Source of the DNA: Candidatus Omnitrophota bacterium
GTDB taxonomy: Bacteria > Ratteibacteria > UBA8468 > MWAK01
Reading direction: 5' to 3'
Assembly (NCBI GenBank): GCA_043797665.1
Contig: JAZDPL010000089.1
Span: 1 to 64,000 of the forward strand
DNA length: 64,000 nt
The notes beneath the pieces are model-generated. The model did no database searches. It had not been told where the DNA came from and saw only the letters and a list, made by a program, of their open reading frames with translations. Below, piece after piece: positions 49,434 through 63,734 of the stretch; the stretch's first letter is position 1; each line of letters opens with the position of its first letter. The position numbers were made by a program, and so were the translations under genes.

Positions 49434-50639
49434 CTACCTCAGGCGGGTGAGAATGCTGGATTTATGTTCCGGCAAGCCTTCCAAATCCGCTAACGCCGAG
49501 ATGTCCTCCGCCCACTCTTTCAAACCAGACTTATTCCACTTCAGCCGGGCAAAAGAACGTAAGAAAGTCAAGGCGGAAAGACCGGAAAACGAGGCCGCGG
49601 TCCCGCTGGTAGGCAGGATATGGCTGGGACCCGCCAAATAATCACCAAGCGCTACCGGCGTGTATCCGCCGATGAAGATGGCGCCTGCGCTCTTAATCTT
49701 TCCGGCAAATTTTTCTGCTTTATCCGCCATCACCACCAGATGTTCCGGCGCAATCATCTCAATCAAGCTGAGAGCCTTTTCCCTTTCCGCATAGATGGCA
49801 AATCCTTCTACTCCGGCGCCGGCAATCTTTTCCAGAAGCCGCCGGTCCGTTGTAACCAGAACAGCCAGACCGCTGCGGTGCTCAGCCTGACTGGCTAACT
49901 CTGCCTTAACAAAAGCCGGCTCTGCGGTTTTATCCGCAAAGACCACCACCTCGCTGGGACCAGCCGGACAGTCCAAATCAACGATGCCGTAAAGGAGCCT
50001 TTTGGCTGCCGAGACATATTCATTGCCCGGACCGACAATCTTGGCAACCTTAGGAATCCCGCCGGCGCCAAAAGCTAACGCTGCGATCGCCTGGGCGCCT
50101 CCGATTTTATATATTTCCGTAACCCCCAGAAAGGCAGCGGTTGCCACCACCGCTCTATTGGCTTGACCATCCTTACCCGGTGGAGTAGCAATAACGATTC
50201 TCTTTACGCCGGCGACCTGGGCCGGAACCACCGCCATCAGAACCGTGGAGACCAGAGGCGCGGTACCGGCCGGTATATAAACTCCAACCGGTTCAACCGG
50301 CACGTAGAGCCGTTCCATCTTACCGGACCGCTCGACAATACTAAATCCCTTCGGAACCTCCTTCTCCGCAAACCTTCTGATACGTCCGGCAGACCTTTCC
50401 AACCGCTGCCGCCATTCCCGGCTAAGAAACGCCTTCTTCGCCCCGGCAATCTCCCGGCGGGAAACCCGGAAGTCAGCAATCTCAACACCATCGTAGGTTC
50501 TGGTCAGTTCCCGTAAAGCAGCCTCACCATCTTTCTTAACCCGGCTGATAATCTCCGCTACCAAACCTTCCACTCGGGGAAAGAGCTCACGGCGTACCGC
50601 CAGAATTATTAACAGTTCTTTCGAACTCACCACTCGCAT
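49434..50639 (-). CDS. hisD: Histidinol dehydrogenase
   Basis: GVYIPAG, GGAQAIAAL, AGPSE, QAEH, APEHL, GDY.AGPSH.LPT. Start placed at ATG 50639 because the upstream ATG is in a REP. Confidence 0.93.
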   Translation of the reverse strand: MRVVSSKELLIILAVRRELFPRVEGLVAEIISRVKKDGEAALRELTRTYDGVEIADFRVSRREIAGAKKAFLSREWRQRLERSAGRIRRFAEKEVPKGFSIVERSGKMERLYVPVEPVGVYIPAGTAPLVSTVLMAVVPAQVAGVKRIVIATPPGKDGQANRAVVATAAFLGVTEIYKIGGAQAIAALAFGAGGIPKVAKIVGPGNEYVSAAKRLLYGIVDLDCPAGPSEVVVFADKTAEPAFVKAELASQAEHRSGLAVLVTTDRRLLEKIAGAGVEGFAIYAEREKALSLIEMIAPEHLVVMADKAEKFAGKIKSAGAIFIGGYTPVALGDYLAGPSHILPTSGTAASFSGLSALTFLRSFARLKWNKSGLKEWAEDISALADLEGLPEHKSSILTRLR

Positions 50640-50655
50640 TGTAATATCCTTTTTT

Positions 50656-50712
50656 GTAGGGGTTCGATTCATCGAACCCGATTCTTTCGGGTCGCATAAA
50701 TGCGACCCCTAC
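50656..50712. repeat. REP doublet
   Basis: GTAGGGGTTCGATTCATCGAACCC...GGGTCGCATAAATGCGACCCCTAC; supplies the TAG stop of the upstream gene. Confidence 0.85.
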
Positions 50713-51782: not shown

Positions 51783-51821
51783 ACTCCTCCCCGAATAAGT
51801 ATATCACACCCCAAATGTAAG

Positions 51822-52043
51822 TTAAATCTTAATCTCAATAATTTTTTGGCGGTTCCTTTCGCCTTTGACTATGCGAATATCCTTCTTTTTCAACCCAAAA
51901 TATTCCGATAAAACCTCAACTGCCGCCTTATTTGCCTTGCCATCCATTGCCGGCGCGGTCACATACACCTTGAGCCGGTTCTCTTCCGTTATCACCTTAT
52001 CCTTGTGCGCGTTAGGAATGACCTTTATCTCTACCCGTCTCAT
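51822..52043 (-). CDS. DUF167/YggU-family protein
   Basis: KVIPNA, APAMDGKAN, IVKGE..R.K. Confidence 0.88.
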   Translation of the reverse strand: MRRVEIKVIPNAHKDKVITEENRLKVYVTAPAMDGKANKAAVEVLSEYFGLKKKDIRIVKGERNRQKIIEIKI

Positions 52044-52166
52044 TAGAAACTATTTATTTTATCATTAAACCTCAATTTTTGAAAATAGAAAACTACTGAT
52101 TTTAGTTTTTCTTTAGTAGGTTGACCTTAAAACGCAGGAAGAAGTACAATTTGTAAGGCAGAAAGA

Positions 52167-53942: not shown

Positions 53943-54120
53943 GTGGGCATCCTTTCCCTGACATCGCTACGGCGGCAATGCTCCGCCTCGTGGACAACGT
54001 TAGAACAATGCGTTCCGGACTATTCTCTCCTCGTAGACACGGGGTTTCGTGAAGCGGAGGAGAGGATGGGGAAGCGGAAGGTTCCGAACTGTTCTTCTCG
54101 TTAACACAGCGTGCATTTTG

Positions 54121-56556
54121 TCATGGGACGCTATTCCTGATTTGCAGTATTTCACCCCTGACGGTTTCGATTTTCAGCAGTGGATCCTTGAATTGTTTCT
54201 CGCCGTGGACGCTGCTTTGGATCACGAACCCGGTCCATGGGAGGATCGCTCGCAGCGGATAACCCGCCTCGCTGATGATTTCAATCCATTGGGTCTCGCC
54301 GCGCTCAAACAGGGCACTGACGAGGAATGAACCGACTGCCCGCAGAGACTGGAATTCGGCTCGTTTGTTGCGCGGCCAGTTGGGGAAGAATCGCAACGTT
54401 CCGCTGTAACTCTGAAACAGGCACTCGTTGATGACAACGGGCAGCGCGAAATTCTCGAACCATATCCCCATCCCCGTTCTGGAGTAAAAATCGAAGGGAG
54501 TGGTGTCGTCGTAACGTCCGTGCACCTGGAGTACCTTATCGGTGCACGTTCCGTTGGGGATGAGGCAGTATTCAATCTGCCGTTTGAACCGCTCGAGATC
54601 GAGCAGGCCGAGCCGTGCGCCCTGAAGATTGAGAAAAACGAGTTCGTTGCCGCCCTCGTTGCGGTGGTTGCGGTAGGAATTCACCGCGATTTCAAACTCT
54701 TCGCGCGGCGAGTGCAATCCGTGGTCTTCTCCGGGAAAGACCGTCATCAAGCTGTTAGGCGTGTTGTATACGATATCCGGATTCTCTCCCGGGACTGAGA
54801 CGAAAACCACACCGCACCCTGATTCCGCCGTTGGATAGTCCGGGAAATAATCAAGCACTTCCTGCACGTCACGAATCAGTGCCGCCTCTGTTTTCTCTCT
54901 TCCCAAAATCTCGCATGCCTTCAGGAAGGCTTTGAAGACGAATTTCGTCAGGGTCAGGTCAACCAGGCAGTCGAAATTGTTCTTGAACCCCGGACGTAAT
55001 CCGTACAGTTCGGGATCTACGGTCGGGAACACGTGATATTTGTCATCGTTCCACTGCGGTCCGTGTGCCTCAGGTCGCTGCATGTAGTCAACGAGGAACA
55101 GCACTGCATCCCGGATGGGTTCGAAAGCACGGCGCTCAAGGAATGACCTGTCCTGGGTGTAGAGATAATGCCACCACAGGCTCTGCACCGTCCACGGTGT
55201 TTCGCAGATTTCCCAACCCCACGTCGGCACCGGATACGGGTTGGTGGTCATTTCGACGGGAAAGAATGAATGCATCCCGTAGGCGCCGCGTAGGCCATAA
55301 TACTCCCGTGCCCACTTTCGCTCGAGCGGCAGAACGCGCTCCACCATGTCAACATACGGCAGGTGCTTGTCCGGATGGTTGCCGGAGAACGTCGCCCAGA
55401 ACGGCTGCTGGGCATTGTAGTTCATGTGATAATCGCCGTGCCATGCGGTACCGATGTCGCGGTAGCTCCAGTTGGCGAATAATCCCGGACAGGTGATTCC
55501 TTCCCTGACAGAACAGTTCAGAAAGTAGAAATTCCAGTACCAGGTGCGTTCCAGAAGATGGTCCTCGAGCGCGACCCCCGACCGGTTCCAGTATTCGCGC
55601 CATGTCTCTCGGCTCGCGTTGGATGCCTCCTCGAATGCGCTTTGCCTCGGATCCGGCAGGTTGCCGACATGCGTGGAGATTCCCGAAGCCTGACCTTCAT
55701 CGAGTTGTACACAGGCAACGAATTCCGCTGCAGGACCGATGCTCCGTTCCAGGATCCCGGCCGTTTCCGGAATCCCCGTCCAGGTGGCCGTCCTCATTCG
55801 CGATTCGAGAGGACCGTTCAGGGACACGGTGAGTCGGAATGCGCGATCCTTTGGATGTCCGTGCTTATCATGCGCATGCGGTTCCTGAAACGGGAGTACC
55901 TGCCGGAAGGAGAGCATCGCCCCGGGCATCGGATCGGGCACTGTGAACGCGGGCAGATCAGGCGGCGTGGAAGGATCGGGAATCATCCGCACCCGGTCGA
56001 ACGGGCTCTGTGCGGGTTTGCCGCCCTCATTCACCGTGCGCAGCCAGAGACGGTCCGCCTCCATTTCGACGAATACCTGTAGCATGACCGGTCTTCCCCC
56101 GACGAGCAATCGCACGTCGCACCGTCCGGTGGAGATATCGAGCGAGTAACCGAGTGCTTCCACGCTGCGGCGGTCGAAACCCAAAAGGAACGACCCGCAC
56201 GGGAAGGGACGTGGGTAAGACTTGCGATAACTCCCGCTCATTTCGTTGAAATACTGTGCGCACCATGCATCCTCGTTGAGATCCCGGTACGTTGATGGAA
56301 CCGCCTTCACCCGCTCGAACACCTGTTGAAACGTGCCGATTTTTTCCTTGTGATCTTCGGCGATACGAATGTCCCAGACATTGTTGTGGCCGAAGTGAAC
56401 AACAATCGCATCGGGACGCACGCACACGATCGCACCCAGGCCCCCGTTACCGAGCACGGCACCTTCAAAGAAATCCACCGCAGGAGTCGTGCGAACGATC
56501 GGGTGCAGTGCCGCGTGTCCAACTGGGTCGAATGTTGAAAATGTATTTTTGTCCAT
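54121..56556 (-). CDS. GH95-like glycoside hydrolase (alpha-fucosidase-like)
   Basis: LGNG, W.GDYHMNYN.Q, (alpha/alpha)6 C-terminus (NECLFQS...FPNWP...F.SLRA.G.F.VSA). Visibly more GC-rich than its flanks; start placed at ATG 56556. Confidence 0.78.
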   Translation of the reverse strand: MDKNTFSTFDPVGHAALHPIVRTTPAVDFFEGAVLGNGGLGAIVCVRPDAIVVHFGHNNVWDIRIAEDHKEKIGTFQQVFERVKAVPSTYRDLNEDAWCAQYFNEMSGSYRKSYPRPFPCGSFLLGFDRRSVEALGYSLDISTGRCDVRLLVGGRPVMLQVFVEMEADRLWLRTVNEGGKPAQSPFDRVRMIPDPSTPPDLPAFTVPDPMPGAMLSFRQVLPFQEPHAHDKHGHPKDRAFRLTVSLNGPLESRMRTATWTGIPETAGILERSIGPAAEFVACVQLDEGQASGISTHVGNLPDPRQSAFEEASNASRETWREYWNRSGVALEDHLLERTWYWNFYFLNCSVREGITCPGLFANWSYRDIGTAWHGDYHMNYNAQQPFWATFSGNHPDKHLPYVDMVERVLPLERKWAREYYGLRGAYGMHSFFPVEMTTNPYPVPTWGWEICETPWTVQSLWWHYLYTQDRSFLERRAFEPIRDAVLFLVDYMQRPEAHGPQWNDDKYHVFPTVDPELYGLRPGFKNNFDCLVDLTLTKFVFKAFLKACEILGREKTEAALIRDVQEVLDYFPDYPTAESGCGVVFVSVPGENPDIVYNTPNSLMTVFPGEDHGLHSPREEFEIAVNSYRNHRNEGGNELVFLNLQGARLGLLDLERFKRQIEYCLIPNGTCTDKVLQVHGRYDDTTPFDFYSRTGMGIWFENFALPVVINECLFQSYSGTLRFFPNWPRNKRAEFQSLRAVGSFLVSALFERGETQWIEIISEAGYPLRAILPWTGFVIQSSVHGEKQFKDPLLKIETVRGEILQIRNSVP

Positions 56557-56810
56557 CACAAAAAAACATTTTAGTCCTGATAGCCTGCCTTGTTTATTAT
56601 ATTCTACTCCGCTGTTGTATCTATTTGTCAATAGACAAATCTGGCACAAGATTCTAACCCCTACCCCACCATCCAGTCGCAATTAGTAGTTTTGACTTCT
56701 TTTGTCCGGAGGGATACAATTTAGACGCAAAGTTCTTTGAGAAGGCGAAGAATCTTTACGCAGCCTTTTTTTAAAAAATAGGATTAGCCTATTTAACCAG
56801 AGAGGTTTAA

Positions 56811-57170
56811 ATGAAAAAATTGTTAATAATTATTTTACTGCTAACTTTAATTTCTTTTTCTTCGGGATGTGGTGTGGCTTTGTTGGTTGGAGCTGGTGGA
56901 TATGCCGAATCTCAAAGCCGCAAGGGAACTAAAGCAAAAGCCAAATATACTAAATTGTATAATAAATATAAGTTAAGGATGGAACAGATAAACCTGAACC
57001 GGGAAAAGGCAGGTTTGCAACCTAAGCCAATAATGAACTTTGAAGAATGGCTTAACCTGCAACCATTAAGTCCTGCAGAAGCGAATCTATTTGAAAAAAC
57101 AGGGGTGCAAACACCAAAAGAAATAAAGGAACAAGAGAAAACAAGAACTGACACTTATATGCAGAAGTAG
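56811..57170 (+). CDS. Hypothetical lipoprotein
   Basis: MKK + hydrophobic stretch + SSGC lipobox; GAGG RBS; TTGACT-17-TACAAT at 56692-56720. Confidence 0.8.
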   Translation: MKKLLIIILLLTLISFSSGCGVALLVGAGGYAESQSRKGTKAKAKYTKLYNKYKLRMEQINLNREKAGLQPKPIMNFEEWLNLQPLSPAEANLFEKTGVQTPKEIKEQEKTRTDTYMQK

Positions 57171-57433
57171 GAAAAATCCTCGTGGACAATGTTAGAACTA
57201 TCCTTCAACGGTCAAATGCATATATTCACATACCCGATTTAGCGCCACGAGCTTAGTTTGTCTTAATTATAGAAGTTTACCCTACCCTGCCACTCACTAT
57301 ATCTCTATTTTGATGGCTCACCTTCCCCACTATCCAGTCGCAATTAGTTTTGGCGTTAGGATGTTGACCCTGGAACGCAGGAAGAAGTACAATCTGGAAG
57401 GAAAACATTTAACGGAAACGACCACCCGGACCA

Positions 57434-59464
57434 ATGTCAAACCGCAACATAGAATCAGGTAAATTTGTCTCAAAAAGTCCTCGGCCGTATCGGCCCTCAA
57501 CCCTTGTTGCCGTAATCGCCATCTGCCTTTTAGGTATTCTCATCTACTCCAATACCTTCCACGCCTCGTTCCATTTTGATGATGAACAAAATATTCTTAC
57601 CAATGCTGCCATCCGTAACCTCTGGAACCTGAAAGCCATCTGGGATTTCGCTCCCACCCGCTTCTTCACCTACCTTTCCTTATCGGTCAACTACCATCTT
57701 CATCAGTTATCTACCCCCGGCTACCACATATTCAACCTGGCGGTCCATCTGGGCTCGGCTATCTTAGTCTACTGGTTTATCCTGCTAATTTTCTCCACCC
57801 CTTATTTCAGATCCTTCCCGCGTTGCGGGCTTGATAAATCAAGCCTCTACACCCCAAATGTAGGGGTTCAATTTATTGAACCCGAAGGTAGGGTGAGAAA
57901 CCTCCTGGCGTTATTTAGCGGTCTGCTCTTTGTCTGCCACCCGGTCCAGATCCAGGCGGTAACCTACATCATCCAGCGTACCGCTTCTTTGGCTACCTTC
58001 TTTTACCTGCTTTCCGTCTGTCTCTATCTAAGAGCAAGATTAAACCAGGCACAAAAACCGGATTCCCCCTGCTGGTTAAGGTTCTATGCCGGTTCAATCC
58101 TATCTGCGGTTGCCGCCCTCTTTACCAAAGAGATGGCCGTTACCCTGCCGTTTATGCTTTTGCTTTGCGAGGTTTCTTTCTTTCGGGATAATCTCAAGAA
58201 CACCGCTAAACGGCTCGCGCCGTTTTTTCTTATCCTGCTAATAGTTTTGATAAACATCAAGGTAACCGGGTGGTCGGCTAAATTTTCAGAGGCAAGGCTC
58301 TTACAGGAACCCCAGTCCGGCCTAACCGCCATCACCCCGGCCCAGTATCTTTTCACCCAGTTCAGGGTGATTGTGACCTACATCAGGCTTTTGCTGGTAC
58401 CGGTAAATCAAAACCTGGACTACGACTATCCAATCAGCCAAACGCTATGGCAAGTGCCCACCGTAACCAGTCTTATCTTTCTTTTGTTGCTCCTGACAGC
58501 CGGCTTTCTCCTGTTCCGGAAGTACCGGTTGATATCTTTTAGTATCTTCTGGTTCTTTCTGACCATCGCCCCGGAATCCAGTATTTTTCCTATCAGGGAT
58601 GTTATCTACGAACACCGGCTCTACCTGCCTTTGGTCGGTTACAGCCTATTTTTGCCGGTTGCCGCCTATGTCTTGTTTGGAAACAGAAAATTAAAACTAA
58701 TGATAATCATTCTCCTGTCCATAATCGCCTGCTATTCGGTGATGACCTATAGCCGCAACCGTGTCTGGAAAGACGAGCTAACCCTGTGGAGCGATGTGAT
58801 GCGCAAGTTTCCGAATAAGACACGGCCGGCTTATAACTTGGGAGTGACTTATGCCGCTCTGGGCCGCTACCAGGAAGCAATTGATGCTTACAAGCAGGCA
58901 ATCCGTATTAAACCGGATTATGCAGAGGCGCACTACAACCTGGGAGTGGCTTATTTCAAACTGGGCCGCTGCCAGGAAGCAATTGATGCTTACAAGCAGG
59001 CAATCCGCCTCAAGCCGGATGATGCCCCTGAGTACAACAACCTGGGAAATGTTTACGCCAGAGTGGATCGCTACCCGGAAGCGATTGACGCTTACAAGCA
59101 GGCAATTCGTATCAAGCCTGATTTCGCAGAGACGCGCTACAACCTGGGAAATGTTTACGACAGAGTGGGTCGCTACCCGGAAGCGATTGACGCTTACAAG
59201 CAGGCAATCCGCCTCAAGCCGGATGATGCCCCTACGTACAACAACCTGGGAAATGTTTACGCCAGAGTGGGTCGCTACCCGGAAACGATTGACGCCTACA
59301 AACAGGCTATCTGTATCAAACCGGATCTGGCAGAGGCGCACTTCAACCTGGGAGTGACTTATTTGAAGCTTGGTGATAAGGGTTCTGCCTTGGAAGAGTA
59401 TACGATTCTCAAAGACCTGAACGGCGATTTAGCCAACAAATTGTTTAATACAATTTACAAATAA
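57434..59464 (+). CDS. TMTC-like GT-C glycosyltransferase with near-identical TPRs
   Basis: FHFDD, HP.Q..AV.YI.QR, TKE, EHRLYLP, about six TPRs; REP pair in frame at 57825-57884. Confidence 0.88.
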   Translation: MSNRNIESGKFVSKSPRPYRPSTLVAVIAICLLGILIYSNTFHASFHFDDEQNILTNAAIRNLWNLKAIWDFAPTRFFTYLSLSVNYHLHQLSTPGYHIFNLAVHLGSAILVYWFILLIFSTPYFRSFPRCGLDKSSLYTPNVGVQFIEPEGRVRNLLALFSGLLFVCHPVQIQAVTYIIQRTASLATFFYLLSVCLYLRARLNQAQKPDSPCWLRFYAGSILSAVAALFTKEMAVTLPFMLLLCEVSFFRDNLKNTAKRLAPFFLILLIVLINIKVTGWSAKFSEARLLQEPQSGLTAITPAQYLFTQFRVIVTYIRLLLVPVNQNLDYDYPISQTLWQVPTVTSLIFLLLLLTAGFLLFRKYRLISFSIFWFFLTIAPESSIFPIRDVIYEHRLYLPLVGYSLFLPVAAYVLFGNRKLKLMIIILLSIIACYSVMTYSRNRVWKDELTLWSDVMRKFPNKTRPAYNLGVTYAALGRYQEAIDAYKQAIRIKPDYAEAHYNLGVAYFKLGRCQEAIDAYKQAIRLKPDDAPEYNNLGNVYARVDRYPEAIDAYKQAIRIKPDFAETRYNLGNVYDRVGRYPEAIDAYKQAIRLKPDDAPTYNNLGNVYARVGRYPETIDAYKQAICIKPDLAEAHFNLGVTYLKLGDKGSALEEYTILKDLNGDLANKLFNTIYK

Positions 59465-59672
59465 GTGACTTTCCCGTTGACTGGTTTTCGTTTTTATTTT
59501 CAAGCCATATTCTGACAGGTGATTATCTATCCAGTCTCCTCTGCCAACATAAGAAACCTTTTTCGGCAAACAAACCATCATACGGGTGCAATTAGTCTTG
59601 GCCGCAACGTCGATTCCTGAAAACTATATTGTTTAAAGCACAAAGCGATTTTTGGGGGTTAATTTGAGTATA

Positions 59673-60647
59673 TTATTGCTGAAGCAAAGAGCCAATCTGG
59701 CTAAAATACCTGAAATAAAACGAAATGACGATATATCCGACGTAAACCGCAATCAGCAGATAGACAATCACCGGCAACATTGCAACGAGCCGTTCGGTCC
59801 CAGTTTCAACCTCATGTTCCATGTAATTGATCACCCGTGTAAGAGTCTCGTCCATTTTCCCGCTCATTTCCCCGATGCGCAACATCTCAAGGAGCATCGA
59901 CGGGAAATAAGGATTGAGCGCAAATACTTCTGATATATTCCCGGATTCTTCCAGCCGCGGAACCATCTTGAGCGTTTCGCGTTCTATAACCGAATTCCCC
60001 ATCGTCTGAGCCGCTATTTGAACCGCTCTTATTATTCCGATTCCGGCAACATATAAACAGACAAATGCCCGGAGAAAACGGAGTAACACAACCCTTTTCA
60101 CCAGCGGTCCTACAACAGGCAAATTGATAATAATGCCGTCTAACCAAGAACCAAAAGCAGAAAGAGAGCACAACTTTTTCGGCAAAACCCCGAAAACAAA
60201 AATAGCAGCATAGAGAATAGCCAGAGCAGGTAATGTCGTGCCAAGGAAAGCTCCCAACCCTCTGGAAATAAGGTTTGGTACTGCCGGAATGATAATTGCC
60301 GCATGGAGAAGCATCGCCGGATATAACAGACCGCTTATAAGTTTGGCCCTTGCACGGTGAAGAAAATCGAAGTAATCTGCCAGTTTCTCAAGAACATCCG
60401 GGAGTGTCCCCGAGGCCTCTCCGGCACGCATAATTGCCACCTCAAAAGGACTGAAAATACGGGGAGAAAAGTGCAAGAGGGCTTCGGTAAGCGACTTTCC
60501 TGAAGATATCCGGTCACAGAGAGTCAGAGTAACAGCAGCATCAAAACCCGTAGTCCTGATGGTTCCCAGAGCGTTCAAAATAGGCATCCCTGCCTTCAAC
60601 ATTACGCCCAACTGCCGGTAAAAAAGCGCTTTCGTCTGATATCTCAT
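59673..60647 (-). CDS. Type II secretion/type IV pilus platform protein (GspF/PilC family)
   Basis: F.RQL..ML.AG.PI, AGEASGTL...L..LADY, IGE.SG.MD..L. Confidence 0.9.
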   Translation of the reverse strand: MRYQTKALFYRQLGVMLKAGMPILNALGTIRTTGFDAAVTLTLCDRISSGKSLTEALLHFSPRIFSPFEVAIMRAGEASGTLPDVLEKLADYFDFLHRARAKLISGLLYPAMLLHAAIIIPAVPNLISRGLGAFLGTTLPALAILYAAIFVFGVLPKKLCSLSAFGSWLDGIIINLPVVGPLVKRVVLLRFLRAFVCLYVAGIGIIRAVQIAAQTMGNSVIERETLKMVPRLEESGNISEVFALNPYFPSMLLEMLRIGEMSGKMDETLTRVINYMEHEVETGTERLVAMLPVIVYLLIAVYVGYIVISFYFRYFSQIGSLLQQ

Positions 60648-60808
60648 ACCACTCCCTGCCCCCGAAGTTGCTATCAGCCAAATAAAGCAATTACTGACGA
60701 GTCTTCAGCAATAATCCTCTTGTATTATACCACCATCCTGTCGCAATTAGTCTTCTTCCCACAATCCCATTGACAGTTGTAACTAAAAAAGGTACAATTG
60801 TACCTAAA

Positions 60809-61420
60809 ATGGGTACAAGAAACAAGGAAACGAGTTTATCTGCTGTTTTGTTCGGTAAAACCCGTCGGGCAGTTCTTTCCTTACTCTACGGTCACGCCGA
60901 CCAGGCATTTTATCTGCGCGAGATTATCCGTAATGCCGGCGTTGGTCCGGGTGCTACCCAGCAGGAAGTAAAACAACTTTCCGAAGTCGGGATTATTAAG
61001 CGCACGGTTAGGGGACGCCAGGTTTATTACCAGGCAGATTCTGATTGTCCGATTTTCAATGAACTCAAAAATCTTGTAACTAAGACTGTCGGGATGGCGG
61101 ATATTTTAAGAAATTTCTTAACGCCACTTGCAGACCGTATTATAGCGGCGTTTATCTACGGTTCCGTTGTTCGCGGAGAAGACCGCAACGGGAGCGACGT
61201 GGATATATTGGTGGTGGGAGATATCGCTTTTACGGAAGTCTCCTCGGCTCTTTCCGGTGCCCAAAAGATACTTTCCAGGGAGGTCAACCCCAGCGTATAT
61301 CCCATCGCGGAATTTCGCACAAAATTGGCGAACGGACATCATTTCCTCAAATCTGTTATAGGCCAGGATAAGATTTTCCTGGTTGGAGACGAAGATGAGC
61401 TTAAGAGATTGGTTAAGTAA
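60809..61420 (+). CDS. wHTH-nucleotidyltransferase (MNT) antitoxin
   Basis: LFGKTRRAVL...YLREI HTH; YGS.VRG...SDVD. TTGACA-17-TACAAT at 60770-98 and TGTACC...GGTACA inverted repeat over the start. Confidence 0.88.
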   Translation: MGTRNKETSLSAVLFGKTRRAVLSLLYGHADQAFYLREIIRNAGVGPGATQQEVKQLSEVGIIKRTVRGRQVYYQADSDCPIFNELKNLVTKTVGMADILRNFLTPLADRIIAAFIYGSVVRGEDRNGSDVDILVVGDIAFTEVSSALSGAQKILSREVNPSVYPIAEFRTKLANGHHFLKSVIGQDKIFLVGDEDELKRLVK

Positions 61421-61599
61421 CGGATGGCTGATTGAGCACAAATTTTATTGACCAATTCGATTCTTTCCGTAAGAAAAGGAATATCGGCGGTTATGAACGG
61501 GCTGGTTTAGTATCTGATCAGGAAGCAACCGAGATGCTATCTCAGGGGTGGCTCCCATCACCGGAATCAGTGGCTCCTTTGACCGGAATACGCAGATAA
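61395..61599 (+). pseudogene. Internally deleted HEPN-like partner gene
   Basis: MSLRDWLSNGWLIEHK joined out of frame to IDQFDSFRKKRNIGGYERAGLVSDQEATEM (RNxxxY HEPN-like motif). Confidence 0.72.
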
Positions 61600-61649
61600 A
61601 TAGCCCGAATTTGAGTTACAGACTTGGTTTTCCCCCATTTTTTAGTGTT

Positions 61650-63004
61650 GAGGGAGAGTTGGACGCGTTCGAACTGGAACCTGGCTTAAATACCCCTTTT
61701 TTGTTATTCCCCCTACCCCACCATCTAGCCGTAATTGATTTTGACTTATCCCGATTGAAGAGCAAATCTAATGATGAGCAACAATTATGGAAACAATTAG
61801 TTGACAATTAATGCTTCGTTCATATAGAATATAACTATGGAAATTTCATATTCTCCCAAATTTGAACGGTCAGCACGGTTGATCCAACATTTGACCCAAG
61901 CTTCAAGTCTGTGTGCATGGATTCAGGAACAAGCTATAGATGTTTCCTGGATTGCGCCTACCCAGCGAGATGCTCTCGTACGATTAGCGCATTATTCTAC
62001 ACGTATTGAAGGGAATCCTCTGACCCTCCCTGAAGTAGAAGCACTCGCCATGGGTAAGGATTTGGCTGTTGAGGAGCATGCTAAACGAGAAGTGTTGAAT
62101 TATTTTGCTGCACTCCGGTGGATCTGGACAAAAAGTCCAACTTATACAATTGAAGAAAAAGAACTTCTTAATCTCCACAGACTCTTAACACAAGGGTTAC
62201 TTCCTTTATCAGAATCCGGGACTTATAAGACAAAACCCAATGCTGTCTTCAAGGATAGTCGTATAATCTACAAACCCCCGCCTCCGGAAGCATCTCCGAT
62301 TCTTACCTGCAGCTTATTAAAATGGCTTAATTCCAACGAAGCAAGAGACGAACATACCGTTATCGTGGCTGCTATAGCCCACCATCGCCTTGTGTCAATT
62401 CACCCATTTCTGGATGGAAATGGCAGAGTCGCAAGAGCCTTAGAATCCTGGCTTCTTTATCATCGAGGTTTTGATACTTATCATATCTTCGCTCTCGATG
62501 AGTTTTTCGAAATTGATCGCGAACGATACTACAACGAGATTCAGAAGGTACGGAGGCAAGAAGAAAATCTCACCTCGTGGTTGGAATACTTGGGCGAAGG
62601 AATTGTAGAAACTCTTAGAAAGACCCAACGCCGTATTCAATCTATACGTACCAAAATGCCAATCACAAAATTTACCTTGAACCATCAACAAGAAAGAATT
62701 ATGCGTATCCTTGGTGAAGTGCCAAAGATTAGCGGAGGTGAACTGGCAAGATCATTGGGTATATCCCGAAGCCATCTCAGTAAAGTGTTGAGCCCCCTTG
62801 TTAAAACCGGATTAGTCATAAAGGAAGGATCTACCAAGGCAGCGATATACCGACTTACCTAAAATTAAGCCAGCCGTCTTAGATTTCCGCGTTCCCTCGG
62901 TCAGGAGGGAGAGTTGGACGCGTTCGAACTGGAACTTGGCTTAAATACCCCTTTTTCTTGTTATCCCCCTACCCCACTCCCATGCTGTCGCAATTAATTT
63001 TGAC
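61650..63004 (+). repeat. ~100-bp direct repeats flanking the Fic gene
   Basis: GAGGGAGAGTTGGACGCGTTCGAACTGGAAC(C/T)TGGCTTAAATACCCCTTTTT... at 61650-61745 and 62905-63004. Confidence 0.92.
61837..62862 (+). CDS. Fic-domain protein with C-terminal HTH
   Basis: STRIEGN, HPFLDGNGRVAR, C-terminal wHTH. Confidence 0.93.
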   Translation: MEISYSPKFERSARLIQHLTQASSLCAWIQEQAIDVSWIAPTQRDALVRLAHYSTRIEGNPLTLPEVEALAMGKDLAVEEHAKREVLNYFAALRWIWTKSPTYTIEEKELLNLHRLLTQGLLPLSESGTYKTKPNAVFKDSRIIYKPPPPEASPILTCSLLKWLNSNEARDEHTVIVAAIAHHRLVSIHPFLDGNGRVARALESWLLYHRGFDTYHIFALDEFFEIDRERYYNEIQKVRRQEENLTSWLEYLGEGIVETLRKTQRRIQSIRTKMPITKFTLNHQQERIMRILGEVPKISGGELARSLGISRSHLSKVLSPLVKTGLVIKEGSTKAAIYRLT

Positions 63005-63094
63005 CAGGGGAGGAAAAACGTAGTATACTTTATGGTGGTTAGGCTGGAACCGGCTAAAATTTAACTTTTTGAAGCTAATGTGTTACGAGGAAGC

Positions 63095-63734
63095 ATGAAA
63101 GCTTGTCTGACATTTGTGAGCATGGTTGTTCTTTGCCTTCTATGCACCGGGTCCGTTGTCAACGGAGAAGGAACTTTTAATCCTGGTACAGAGCCCGATG
63201 GTTTCCGCAACATGACTTGGGGAACTGATATATCTGCCTTCGACGGACTTGAGCTTCTGCGAGATGATCCTGAAAAAGAATATGTGTATGTCCTGAAGGA
63301 ATATCAAGGGGTTAAAATATACAAGAGAAATGGAGATGAATATATGATAGGCGATAATATACAGTTGGCACTTACAGGTAATACTTCAGCAGCCCGAGGG
63401 TGGAGCAAGGTCCCAGAAGCACCGATTGAATGGTATTTCAAAAATGACAAGTTCTGTGGTGTTCACCTGATTACCGGCAACTACGCTTCTGGAGGTCAAT
63501 CTCTCGCAGGGTTCTTGGGAGGAAAAGGGAACAGTAATAGTTTCAGCGACCCCTGAAAATGCCGAAGTAAATATTGATGGGATTTTTATAGGTAATGTGC
63601 CCTGCAAGCTCTCGTTGAGTGACGGAATTCACATCATTGAAATAAAATCTGCTGGCTACAAAAACTATAGAAAGGAACTACGTGTTATAGGAGAGTCTGA
63701 AGTCACGATAAAGACTGCGTTGGAGAAAGAGTAG
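63095..63734 (+). pseudogene. Secreted protein with an out-of-frame PEGA domain (frameshifted or chimeric)
   Basis: Signal peptide and PDGFRNMTWG in the ORF ending at 63556; the +1 frame gives GTVIVSATPENAEVNIDGIFIGNVP...GIHIIEIKSAGYKNY to TAG 63734. Confidence 0.65.

Follow-up and report, generated by a model that had tools for sequence, protein, structure and literature searches.

In a 64,000-nucleotide stretch of DNA from a Candidatus Omnitrophota bacterium (contig JAZDPL010000089.1, positions 1 to 64,000; hereafter the window), a short repeat lies between unrelated accessory genes, and comparison with related genomes suggests that this repeat marks where acquired genes were swapped between genomic islands, no dedicated enzyme for the exchange having been found. 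The reading that we hold with moderate confidence is that the repeat, a 28-bp asymmetric box, is a conserved exchange joint of genomic islands, inherited from the ends of integrative elements. The source genome (G000, in which the window is C61:1-64000) is an assembly of 2.69 Mb in 93 contigs that is 86% complete. The consensus of the box is TTACCCCACCATCCAGTCGCAATTAGTT, with two well-kept arms flanking a more variable 6-bp centre. An earlier description of the window (the original prediction) gave a motif of about 35 bp ending in TTGAC; the conserved part proved to be 28 bp, and since the information falls off past position 28, the TTGAC at its end belongs to a promoter, as the −35 element, and lies outside the box. 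Its six co-oriented copies were found where it had placed them, five scoring 25-43 bits with the refined matrix and the copy at 59570 being degenerate (8.2 bits), and the best score in the first 56 kb, said to lack copies, was 6.7. The motif was not confined to this array: the iterated matrix gave 54 matches of at least 18 bits across G000, compared to 0 with 8 column-shuffled matrices, and after one match within a coding region (C30) was discarded, 53 credible copies on 18 of the 93 contigs remained. Together with parts of four related genomes (G001, G003, G005 and G006) and metagenome contigs, G000 yielded a pooled set of 89 distinct copies.

The box is conserved as double-stranded sequence without structure. 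The imperfect 18-bp dyad that had been read into its right part did not hold up, as 12 of the 18 self-complementary positions were reached by just 12 of the 89 pooled copies; none of 8 box strands folded better than shuffles (z −0.18 to 0.67), 14 extended copies had no consensus fold, and neither the box nor the C module, a conserved sequence found upstream of many copies, folds. These fold tests gave no sign of a hairpin or structured RNA, and a tRNA or known-RNA origin was rejected because no Rfam family or tRNA matches the box (the sole match in an Rfam scan of the window was a tRNA). Orientation is uniform on 8 of the 10 multi-copy contigs. Replication-linked polarity was set aside, the relation of box orientation to GC skew being mixed, as was a Chi or KOPS role, for which octamer z values outside the repeat were 0.8 and −1.5 (order-3 model, boxes masked). 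A dif-like site was also rejected, since none of the 10 matches to a loose pattern was linked to the box; a near-identical 28-bp pair fitting that pattern lies at C16:19076 and C82:17705 of G000.

The evidence that carries the proposed exchange comes from the flanks. Among pairs of copies sharing at least 50 bp downstream, the homology starts within 8 bp of the left edge of the box in 89 of 106, and among those sharing at least 50 bp upstream it stops within 8 bp of the right edge in 48 of 61, pairs that are not independent events, and five exceptions are neighbouring copies overlapping themselves. The flanks fall into 10 upstream and 11 downstream families that are nearly uncoupled: of the 201 pairs of copies with a common upstream family, 27 also had a common downstream family, compared to 14 predicted by independence (P 0.026, a residual linkage), and with stricter clustering the downstream family was common to 1 of 49 pairs. 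A single combination, C module-box-promoter b, accounts for 21 of the 27 linked pairs; in the sister genus one conserved C module precedes most copies and the form with C module plus box dominates, so this combination is likely ancestral.

When relatives were compared, cargo had been gained, lost and shuffled with breakpoints at the box, as had been predicted. The UPF0047 cassette, 95-97% identical between G000 and G001, begins at the box behind three unrelated left flanks; the copy at C56:11326 shares DNA with a G001 copy from the box onward, and a copy on C24 loses its similarity to the G001 orthologue at the right box edge. One upstream gene with its box has tRNA-Thr as its neighbour in G000 and carA in G001; a gene-free 240-bp box-to-box unit is present at three loci; and the box abuts core DNA directly behind uvrA and ahead of hisF and of carA. 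An insertion sequence sits at the right edge of one box with a 12-bp duplication (G000:C90 end, C44:24663); this insertion splits the assembly, so that C90 and C44 form one hisF-carA island. Separately, gyrB (G000:C33:39216, L215) has gyrA after it in six relatives of other genera; in G000 island DNA takes that place, and in G001 different DNA.

A predicted sigma-70-type promoter starts 0-25 bp downstream of the box in 61 of the 89 copies, where shuffles gave 2.3 and the upstream side read on the reverse strand gave 5; box-to-promoter offsets peak at 0 and 13-14 bp. All five strong copies in the window have a predicted promoter 0 to 60 bp downstream; two of these, for which TTGAC had been proposed as the −35 element, were confirmed and three more were found. 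Since the promoter follows the box, every swap would yield an expressed gene.

The box has a narrow distribution. In a count with one pattern across 65 genomes of the phylum, there were 38 matches in G000, 16 in G001 (same genus, 70% complete) and 4, 2 and 2 in three genomes of another genus; two genomes had single weak matches, equal to the control level, and the remaining 58 had 0. Outside G000 the box is thus confined, among these 65 genomes, to 4 relatives of the same family. Core identity between G000 and G001 is 85-94%. Identity to the consensus is 0.83-0.89 in all five box-holding genomes, compared to a core-gene identity of about 70% with the other genus, indicating that the box is under constraint. 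Four metagenome contigs carry the box and three of them repeat G001 arrangements, which argues against an assembly artefact, although the samples may be related. Of 16 exact 19-mer stretches returned from a genome collection, 9 came from relatives in the family and 7 were isolated matches in unrelated taxa, the latter being taken as chance. Viral contigs contained no exact box, no scar pattern and no relative of the G001 recombinase described below, phage and plasmid records gave no match to the box, and a literature search did not return its sequence; the accessible part of a 2026 Omnitrophota preprint contains nothing on integrons, genomic islands or intergenic repeats.

The array in the window is the left part of an island of ~30 kb that extends from hisD to tRNA-Asn; beyond the window it goes on as far as the copy at C61:80648, which precedes pyruvate kinase and is 20 bp from the 3' end of tRNA-Asn. 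Between 53.9 and 78.6 kb of C61 there are 12 scars of tRNA-Asn type and 2 of D type. Twelve spacers start with a core resembling the antisense tRNA-Asn end, in the same frame and strand as that antisense, and read in this frame they encode peptides such as WLRLVDNVRT and LLRWQDSFRT. A complete serine recombinase of G001 terminates in a tail like these peptides. Tail A is matched by 25 database proteins, one of which aligns to the G001 serine recombinase (E 4.8e-6); the tail-bearing protein P0005 aligned non-significantly to the recombinase on C75 (E 1.4), and four tail-bearing database proteins had no Pfam match. We read the scars as probable junction remnants of serial integration of the serine-recombinase type. 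The same hisD/tRNA-Asn interval in G001, G005 and G006 holds other cargo, again with scars and boxes, and hisD orthologues adjoin a different cargo set in G001, G003 and G006. Five of the six window copies have a scar immediately upstream, and genome-wide a scar or arm repeat lies within 330 bp upstream of 16 of 53 copies, compared to 0.13% of random places, the patterns used for this count being built from scars already seen. The original prediction of tandem integration was right as to how the region grew, but the tandem integration visible here used the tRNA-Asn attachment core as its site, not the box.

Integrative elements were also observed elsewhere. An element with a serine recombinase at tRNA-Gln (L205, G000:C75:24001-40712) carries a ThiF-like gene, a DUF87/HerA-like ATPase and, by eye, a small E2/ubiquitin-like set, on a contig without a box. 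Two satellite-like elements (L188:9136-13442, at G000:C52:76-80.4 kb, and G000:C65:1448-5265) consist of a primase and a tyrosine integrase whose gene runs into the 5' half of a tRNA, and their arm repeats recur as scars in several islands. The rsgA gene of the island (L102 / G003:C11:45708-46825) is 88% identical to the copy in the other genus where core genes are at about 70%, a sign of recent transfer without a box.

The features of the window array are as follows (plus and minus refer to the strand).
49434..50672, minus: hisD (Pfam Histidinol_dh), a core gene and the left island border.
52106..52158, plus: box-less promoter module of the same family as the module after box 2 (repeat D8), in a gap without a box score.
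53980..54012, plus: attachment-site scar of family A, a tRNA-Asn-type core with the start of a recombinase tail.
54121..56559, minus: GH95-family glycoside hydrolase (Pfam), GC 0.59.
56634..56650, plus: remnant of a putative integrase arm-type repeat, so labelled from its place beside tRNA halves and integrases.
56661..56688, plus: box copy 1, 43.0 bits.
56692..56720, plus: sigma-70-type promoter, TTGACT-17-TACAAT.
56811..57170, plus: putative lipoprotein of 119 aa with no Pfam family and a paralogue in another island (C52).
57178..57321, plus: family A module (recombinase-tail scar with spacer) that matches four copies at C61:67.3-78.7 kb with 89-94% identity.
57322..57349, plus: box copy 2, 40.2 bits.
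57364..57393, plus: promoter TTGACC-18-TACAAT, belonging to the commonest downstream module.
57434..59464, plus: membrane protein with TPR repeats, the repeats tested by Pfam.
59539..59558, plus: C module, the upstream partner of most sister-genus copies.
59570..59597, plus: box copy 3, degenerate, 8.2 bits, without a downstream promoter.
59673..60647, minus: T2SSF/PilC-family gene (Pfam).
60654..60724, plus: recombinase-tail scar of family G, truncated.
60725..60752, plus: box copy 4, 32.3 bits.
60770..60798, plus: promoter TTGACA-17-TACAAT, retained in box-less G001 homologues.
60809..61420, plus: HTH and nucleotidyltransferase gene, whose partner gene is a 16-codon stub from 61395.
61650..61712, plus: scar of family D, its core resembling, by eye, the antisense tRNA-Leu(CAA) end.
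61713..61740, plus: box copy 5, 34.2 bits, with a predicted working promoter 60 bp on (61801-61830).
61837..62862, plus: Fic-domain gene with a C-terminal HTH (Pfam), of which a contig of another strain has a 98.6% copy.
62905..62971, plus: second copy of the family D scar.
62972..62999, plus: box copy 6, 25.0 bits.
63000..63029, plus: promoter TTGACC-18-TATACT.
63080..63734, plus: gene for a secreted protein, broken, with a PEGA domain in another frame.

The main support for box copy 3 is the conserved module that precedes it. The cargo differs in composition as had been noted, with a GC of 0.59 over GH95 and about 0.44 over the last genes. Pfam bore out the earlier labels GH95, T2SSF/PilC, Fic, TPR protein and nucleotidyltransferase; the HEPN partner proposed for the last is just the 16-codon stub, its family unconfirmed, and the PEGA domain is present in a shifted frame. 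The TPR membrane protein may be TMTC-like, Pfam having covered its TPRs. In both G000 (61395-61442) and G001 (L111:5149) the gene that partners the nucleotidyltransferase breaks off after the same 16 codons, although the upstream gene is only 75% identical between the two. Beside hisD there is a pair of REP-like hairpins (50655-50712), a single copy of which lies within the TPR membrane gene (57859-57885), and a RAYT-like gene is located on C47; the DUF167 gene also beside hisD (51795-52044) is 97% identical in G001, compared to 88-93% for neighbouring core genes. In agreement with the original prediction, the 26 open reading frames (ORFs) of the array gave no recombinase, and no intact integrase was found among them.

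From these observations we propose the following scheme. Elements with serine or tyrosine integrases inserted repeatedly at tRNA genes, here tRNA-Asn, leaving the junction scars now seen. One family of such elements may have borne the C module and box ahead of its first cargo promoter, on the side of the attachment arm. As the present arrangements show, the box has spread in this genus to more than 50 places, and left flanks (scars, gene ends) have been re-paired at it with right flanks (a promoter and its gene), moving self-expressing genes between islands and rearranging the chromosome. The exchange itself was presumably guided by homology inside the box with variable resolution, no fixed-point integrase being encoded beside the array, and it was probably helped by a protein that binds or cuts the double-stranded box and would thereby also conserve it.

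The position of the crossover is consistent with such guidance. Minor alleles within the box show no significant association with either flank, except that those at positions 10-15 follow the upstream family (one of 14 tests, P 0.028), and of the recent pairs one switches at the right edge of the box and another left of position 10; the lack of a fixed crossover point favours homology-guided exchange. Several observations weigh against an exchange joint of this kind, beginning with the dependence among breakpoint pairs noted above. Ordinary RecA exchange has a threshold of about 25 bp, and the exact stretch shared between copies has a median of 10 bp and reaches at least 20 bp in 3% of 1378 pairs, which is short for RecA alone and is why we infer a helper protein, none having been identified. 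At their far ends cassettes frequently stop before a second box is reached, so that box-to-box circles are not the rule; none of the contigs from other strains (two DNA runs, 7% of words) showed a junction at a box; some changes of left flank fall at the tRNA-Asn core itself (53986 vs 75665); and only the 16 of 53 copies counted above have a recognisable upstream scar.

A search for an enzyme in G000 and its relatives gave no candidate linked to the box. The six tyrosine recombinases of G000 are XerC/D-like or tRNA-linked, the best scoring 155 bits against the TIGR02249 cut-off of 265; neither of two serine recombinases has a box nearby, and none of the 90 ORFs scanned of 217 in islands encodes a recombinase. 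The box resembles what we take to be a MOBP-type oriT nick site, for which no cognate MOBP relaxase was found: PF03432, which covers the MOBP family only, matched 0 of 9 family genomes, with the control matched in 2 of 14, and a Replic_Relax search gave no match anywhere, controls included. Neither Cas1 nor ERF was found in G000, other annealing proteins lying outside the latter search. Two IS110 genes and one reverse transcriptase have no box nearby; the reverse transcriptase, with its small upstream gene (L185, G000:C50:8320-10040), has the layout of a diversity-generating retroelement.

These searches bear directly on the possibility, which we regard as unlikely, that a dedicated site-specific recombinase or nicking enzyme acts on the box. 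Its gene would lie elsewhere (on a visiting element, a phage or an unassembled contig), and it would excise promoter-bearing cassettes and insert them, amounting to integron-like capture without hairpins. Such an enzyme would account for the two conserved arms around a variable centre, the strict co-orientation within clusters, the sharp breakpoints and an exact identity too low for plain homologous recombination; the genome is moreover only 86% complete, and there is a precedent in dRS3, whose copies are, in the part of that report available, proposed recombinase sites and the target of a phage enzyme (PMC1797815). However, for the site-specific recombination site of the original prediction no linked recombinase, conserved dyad or fixed crossover position was found. 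The tyrosine recombinases all fall below the integron cut-off, neither the scanned island ORFs nor those of the array include a recombinase, relaxase and Cas1 searches were negative within the scopes given, viral contigs held no exact box, and IS110 and the reverse transcriptase lie away from boxes, G005 and G006 having the box but no IS110 match. A more far-reaching variant, to which we also give little credence, is that a recombinase supplied in trans by visiting elements recognises the polar, non-hairpin 28-bp box and inserts promoter-bearing cassettes at any of its copies; all tRNA islands would then be one distributed integron-like exchange network in which core DNA is rearranged too.

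It is rather doubtful, likewise, that the box is a mere cis-element of element ends (an operator, origin or packaging mark), every copy having come in with an element of its own and the mosaic having been made by deletions and by integration at tRNA cores. The scars upstream of window copies, the over-representation of C module-box-promoter b and the switch of left flanks at the tRNA-Asn core would all fit a passenger, and the accessible part of a report on tycheposons describes islands built in this way (10.1101/2020.12.28.424599). A passenger does not explain why the same cassette starts at the box behind three unrelated left flanks, why the box is joined directly to core DNA or why the flanks are nearly independent, and two intact-looking serine-recombinase elements as well as the primase-integrase elements have no box at their ends. 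Least probable, and in our view very unlikely, is a regulon whose host transcription factor binds at the box, the shuffling being incidental. Conservation of the double strand without structure, the promoter directly downstream in 61 of 89 copies and the position of the box before some core promoters (tRNAs, carA, pstS) would suit such a binding site, but the distance between box and −35 element is variable (0 to 25 bp), several copies have no gene after them, and copy number ranges from 0 to 38 within one family (one pattern). Although the box is genome-wide, as expected of a transcription-factor site, it is not kept upstream of orthologous genes: relatives retain the promoter or gene without it, as at pyruvate kinase (G006), rsgA (G003, G006) and the nucleotidyltransferase (G001), and 7 of 7 uvrA and 7 of 7 gyrB junctions in relatives have no box, which argues against a conserved regulon site.

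Overall, by analogy the exchange joint seems to work like the linkers of the PeSL, CUP or neisserial intergenic mosaic element (NIME) systems, yet it fails a defining feature of each; the comparisons that follow draw on parts of the cited reports. PeSL elements of T4-type phages are short promoter-linked repeats in hypervariable regions for which no dedicated recombinase was identified (PMC2839356; PMC4122927). The box shares with them a sigma-70 promoter in the repeat unit, here predicted, and the gain, loss and exchange of genes bounded by the repeat. They differ in having a stem-loop terminator, whereas the box and C module, the two parts scanned here, are unfolded, and in their T4-type phage host, whereas core chromosomal genes flank the array; excised mini-circles are a further PeSL feature, the box system being known from assembled contigs. 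In addition, the conserved part here is the box upstream of the promoter and is tied to tRNA attachment scars. CUP repeats of IncN plasmids each carry a promoter at the 5' ends of accessory operons, and recombination between them deletes or rearranges genes (PMC5371602, PMC3490853). Co-oriented repeats with a promoter at operon 5' ends are common to both systems, but CUP repeats lie in a plasmid leading region with establishment-regulon cargo, whereas the box is in chromosomal islands in more than 50 copies, with other cargo and no match in plasmid records. No ArdK-like regulator, a CUP feature, was identified here, no search having been aimed at a candidate regulator. In NIME, dRS3/RS arrays have a short repeat that separates families of 50-250-bp modules and is a proposed focus of recombination (PMC1797815). 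The box likewise stands between many shuffled module families; in contrast to the inverted repeat dRS3 it is asymmetric and polar, whole promoter-bearing genes lie between its copies, and no phage enzyme was found.

Islands of the tycheposon type resemble the present one in stacked junction scars, degenerate integrases and changing cargo at a conserved tRNA locus (10.1101/2020.12.28.424599). Of the features of an accreting island anchored at a tRNA, scars in line with the tRNA end and different cargo at the same locus were found here, and an intact integrase was not. The scars here are C-terminal recombinase tails, compared to partial tRNAs in tycheposons, and there is a second shared joint besides the attachment site, none being mentioned for tycheposons in the part of that source available. 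With integrons the array shares tandem co-oriented sites between unrelated accessory genes; however, neither IntI nor an attC hairpin was found, bearing out the earlier statement that the motif is not attC, and instead of being mostly promoterless the box cassettes carry their own predicted promoters, in arrays at many loci. The box thus suggests how bacteria with small genomes and without integrons may keep gaining expressed genes, and if a dedicated recombinase exists, it would be a new mechanism of gene capture and possibly a tool. When PeSL were described, Arbiol et al., in the portion available, reported that there was at that time no evidence of such plasticity in cellular organisms and left open a dedicated protein (PMC2839356). 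The box would provide a chromosomal case: its breakpoints can be measured, its flanks are almost completely uncoupled, and its copies have diverged too far for RecA to exchange them easily. Since it is one short defined site, the question of a dedicated protein becomes testable.

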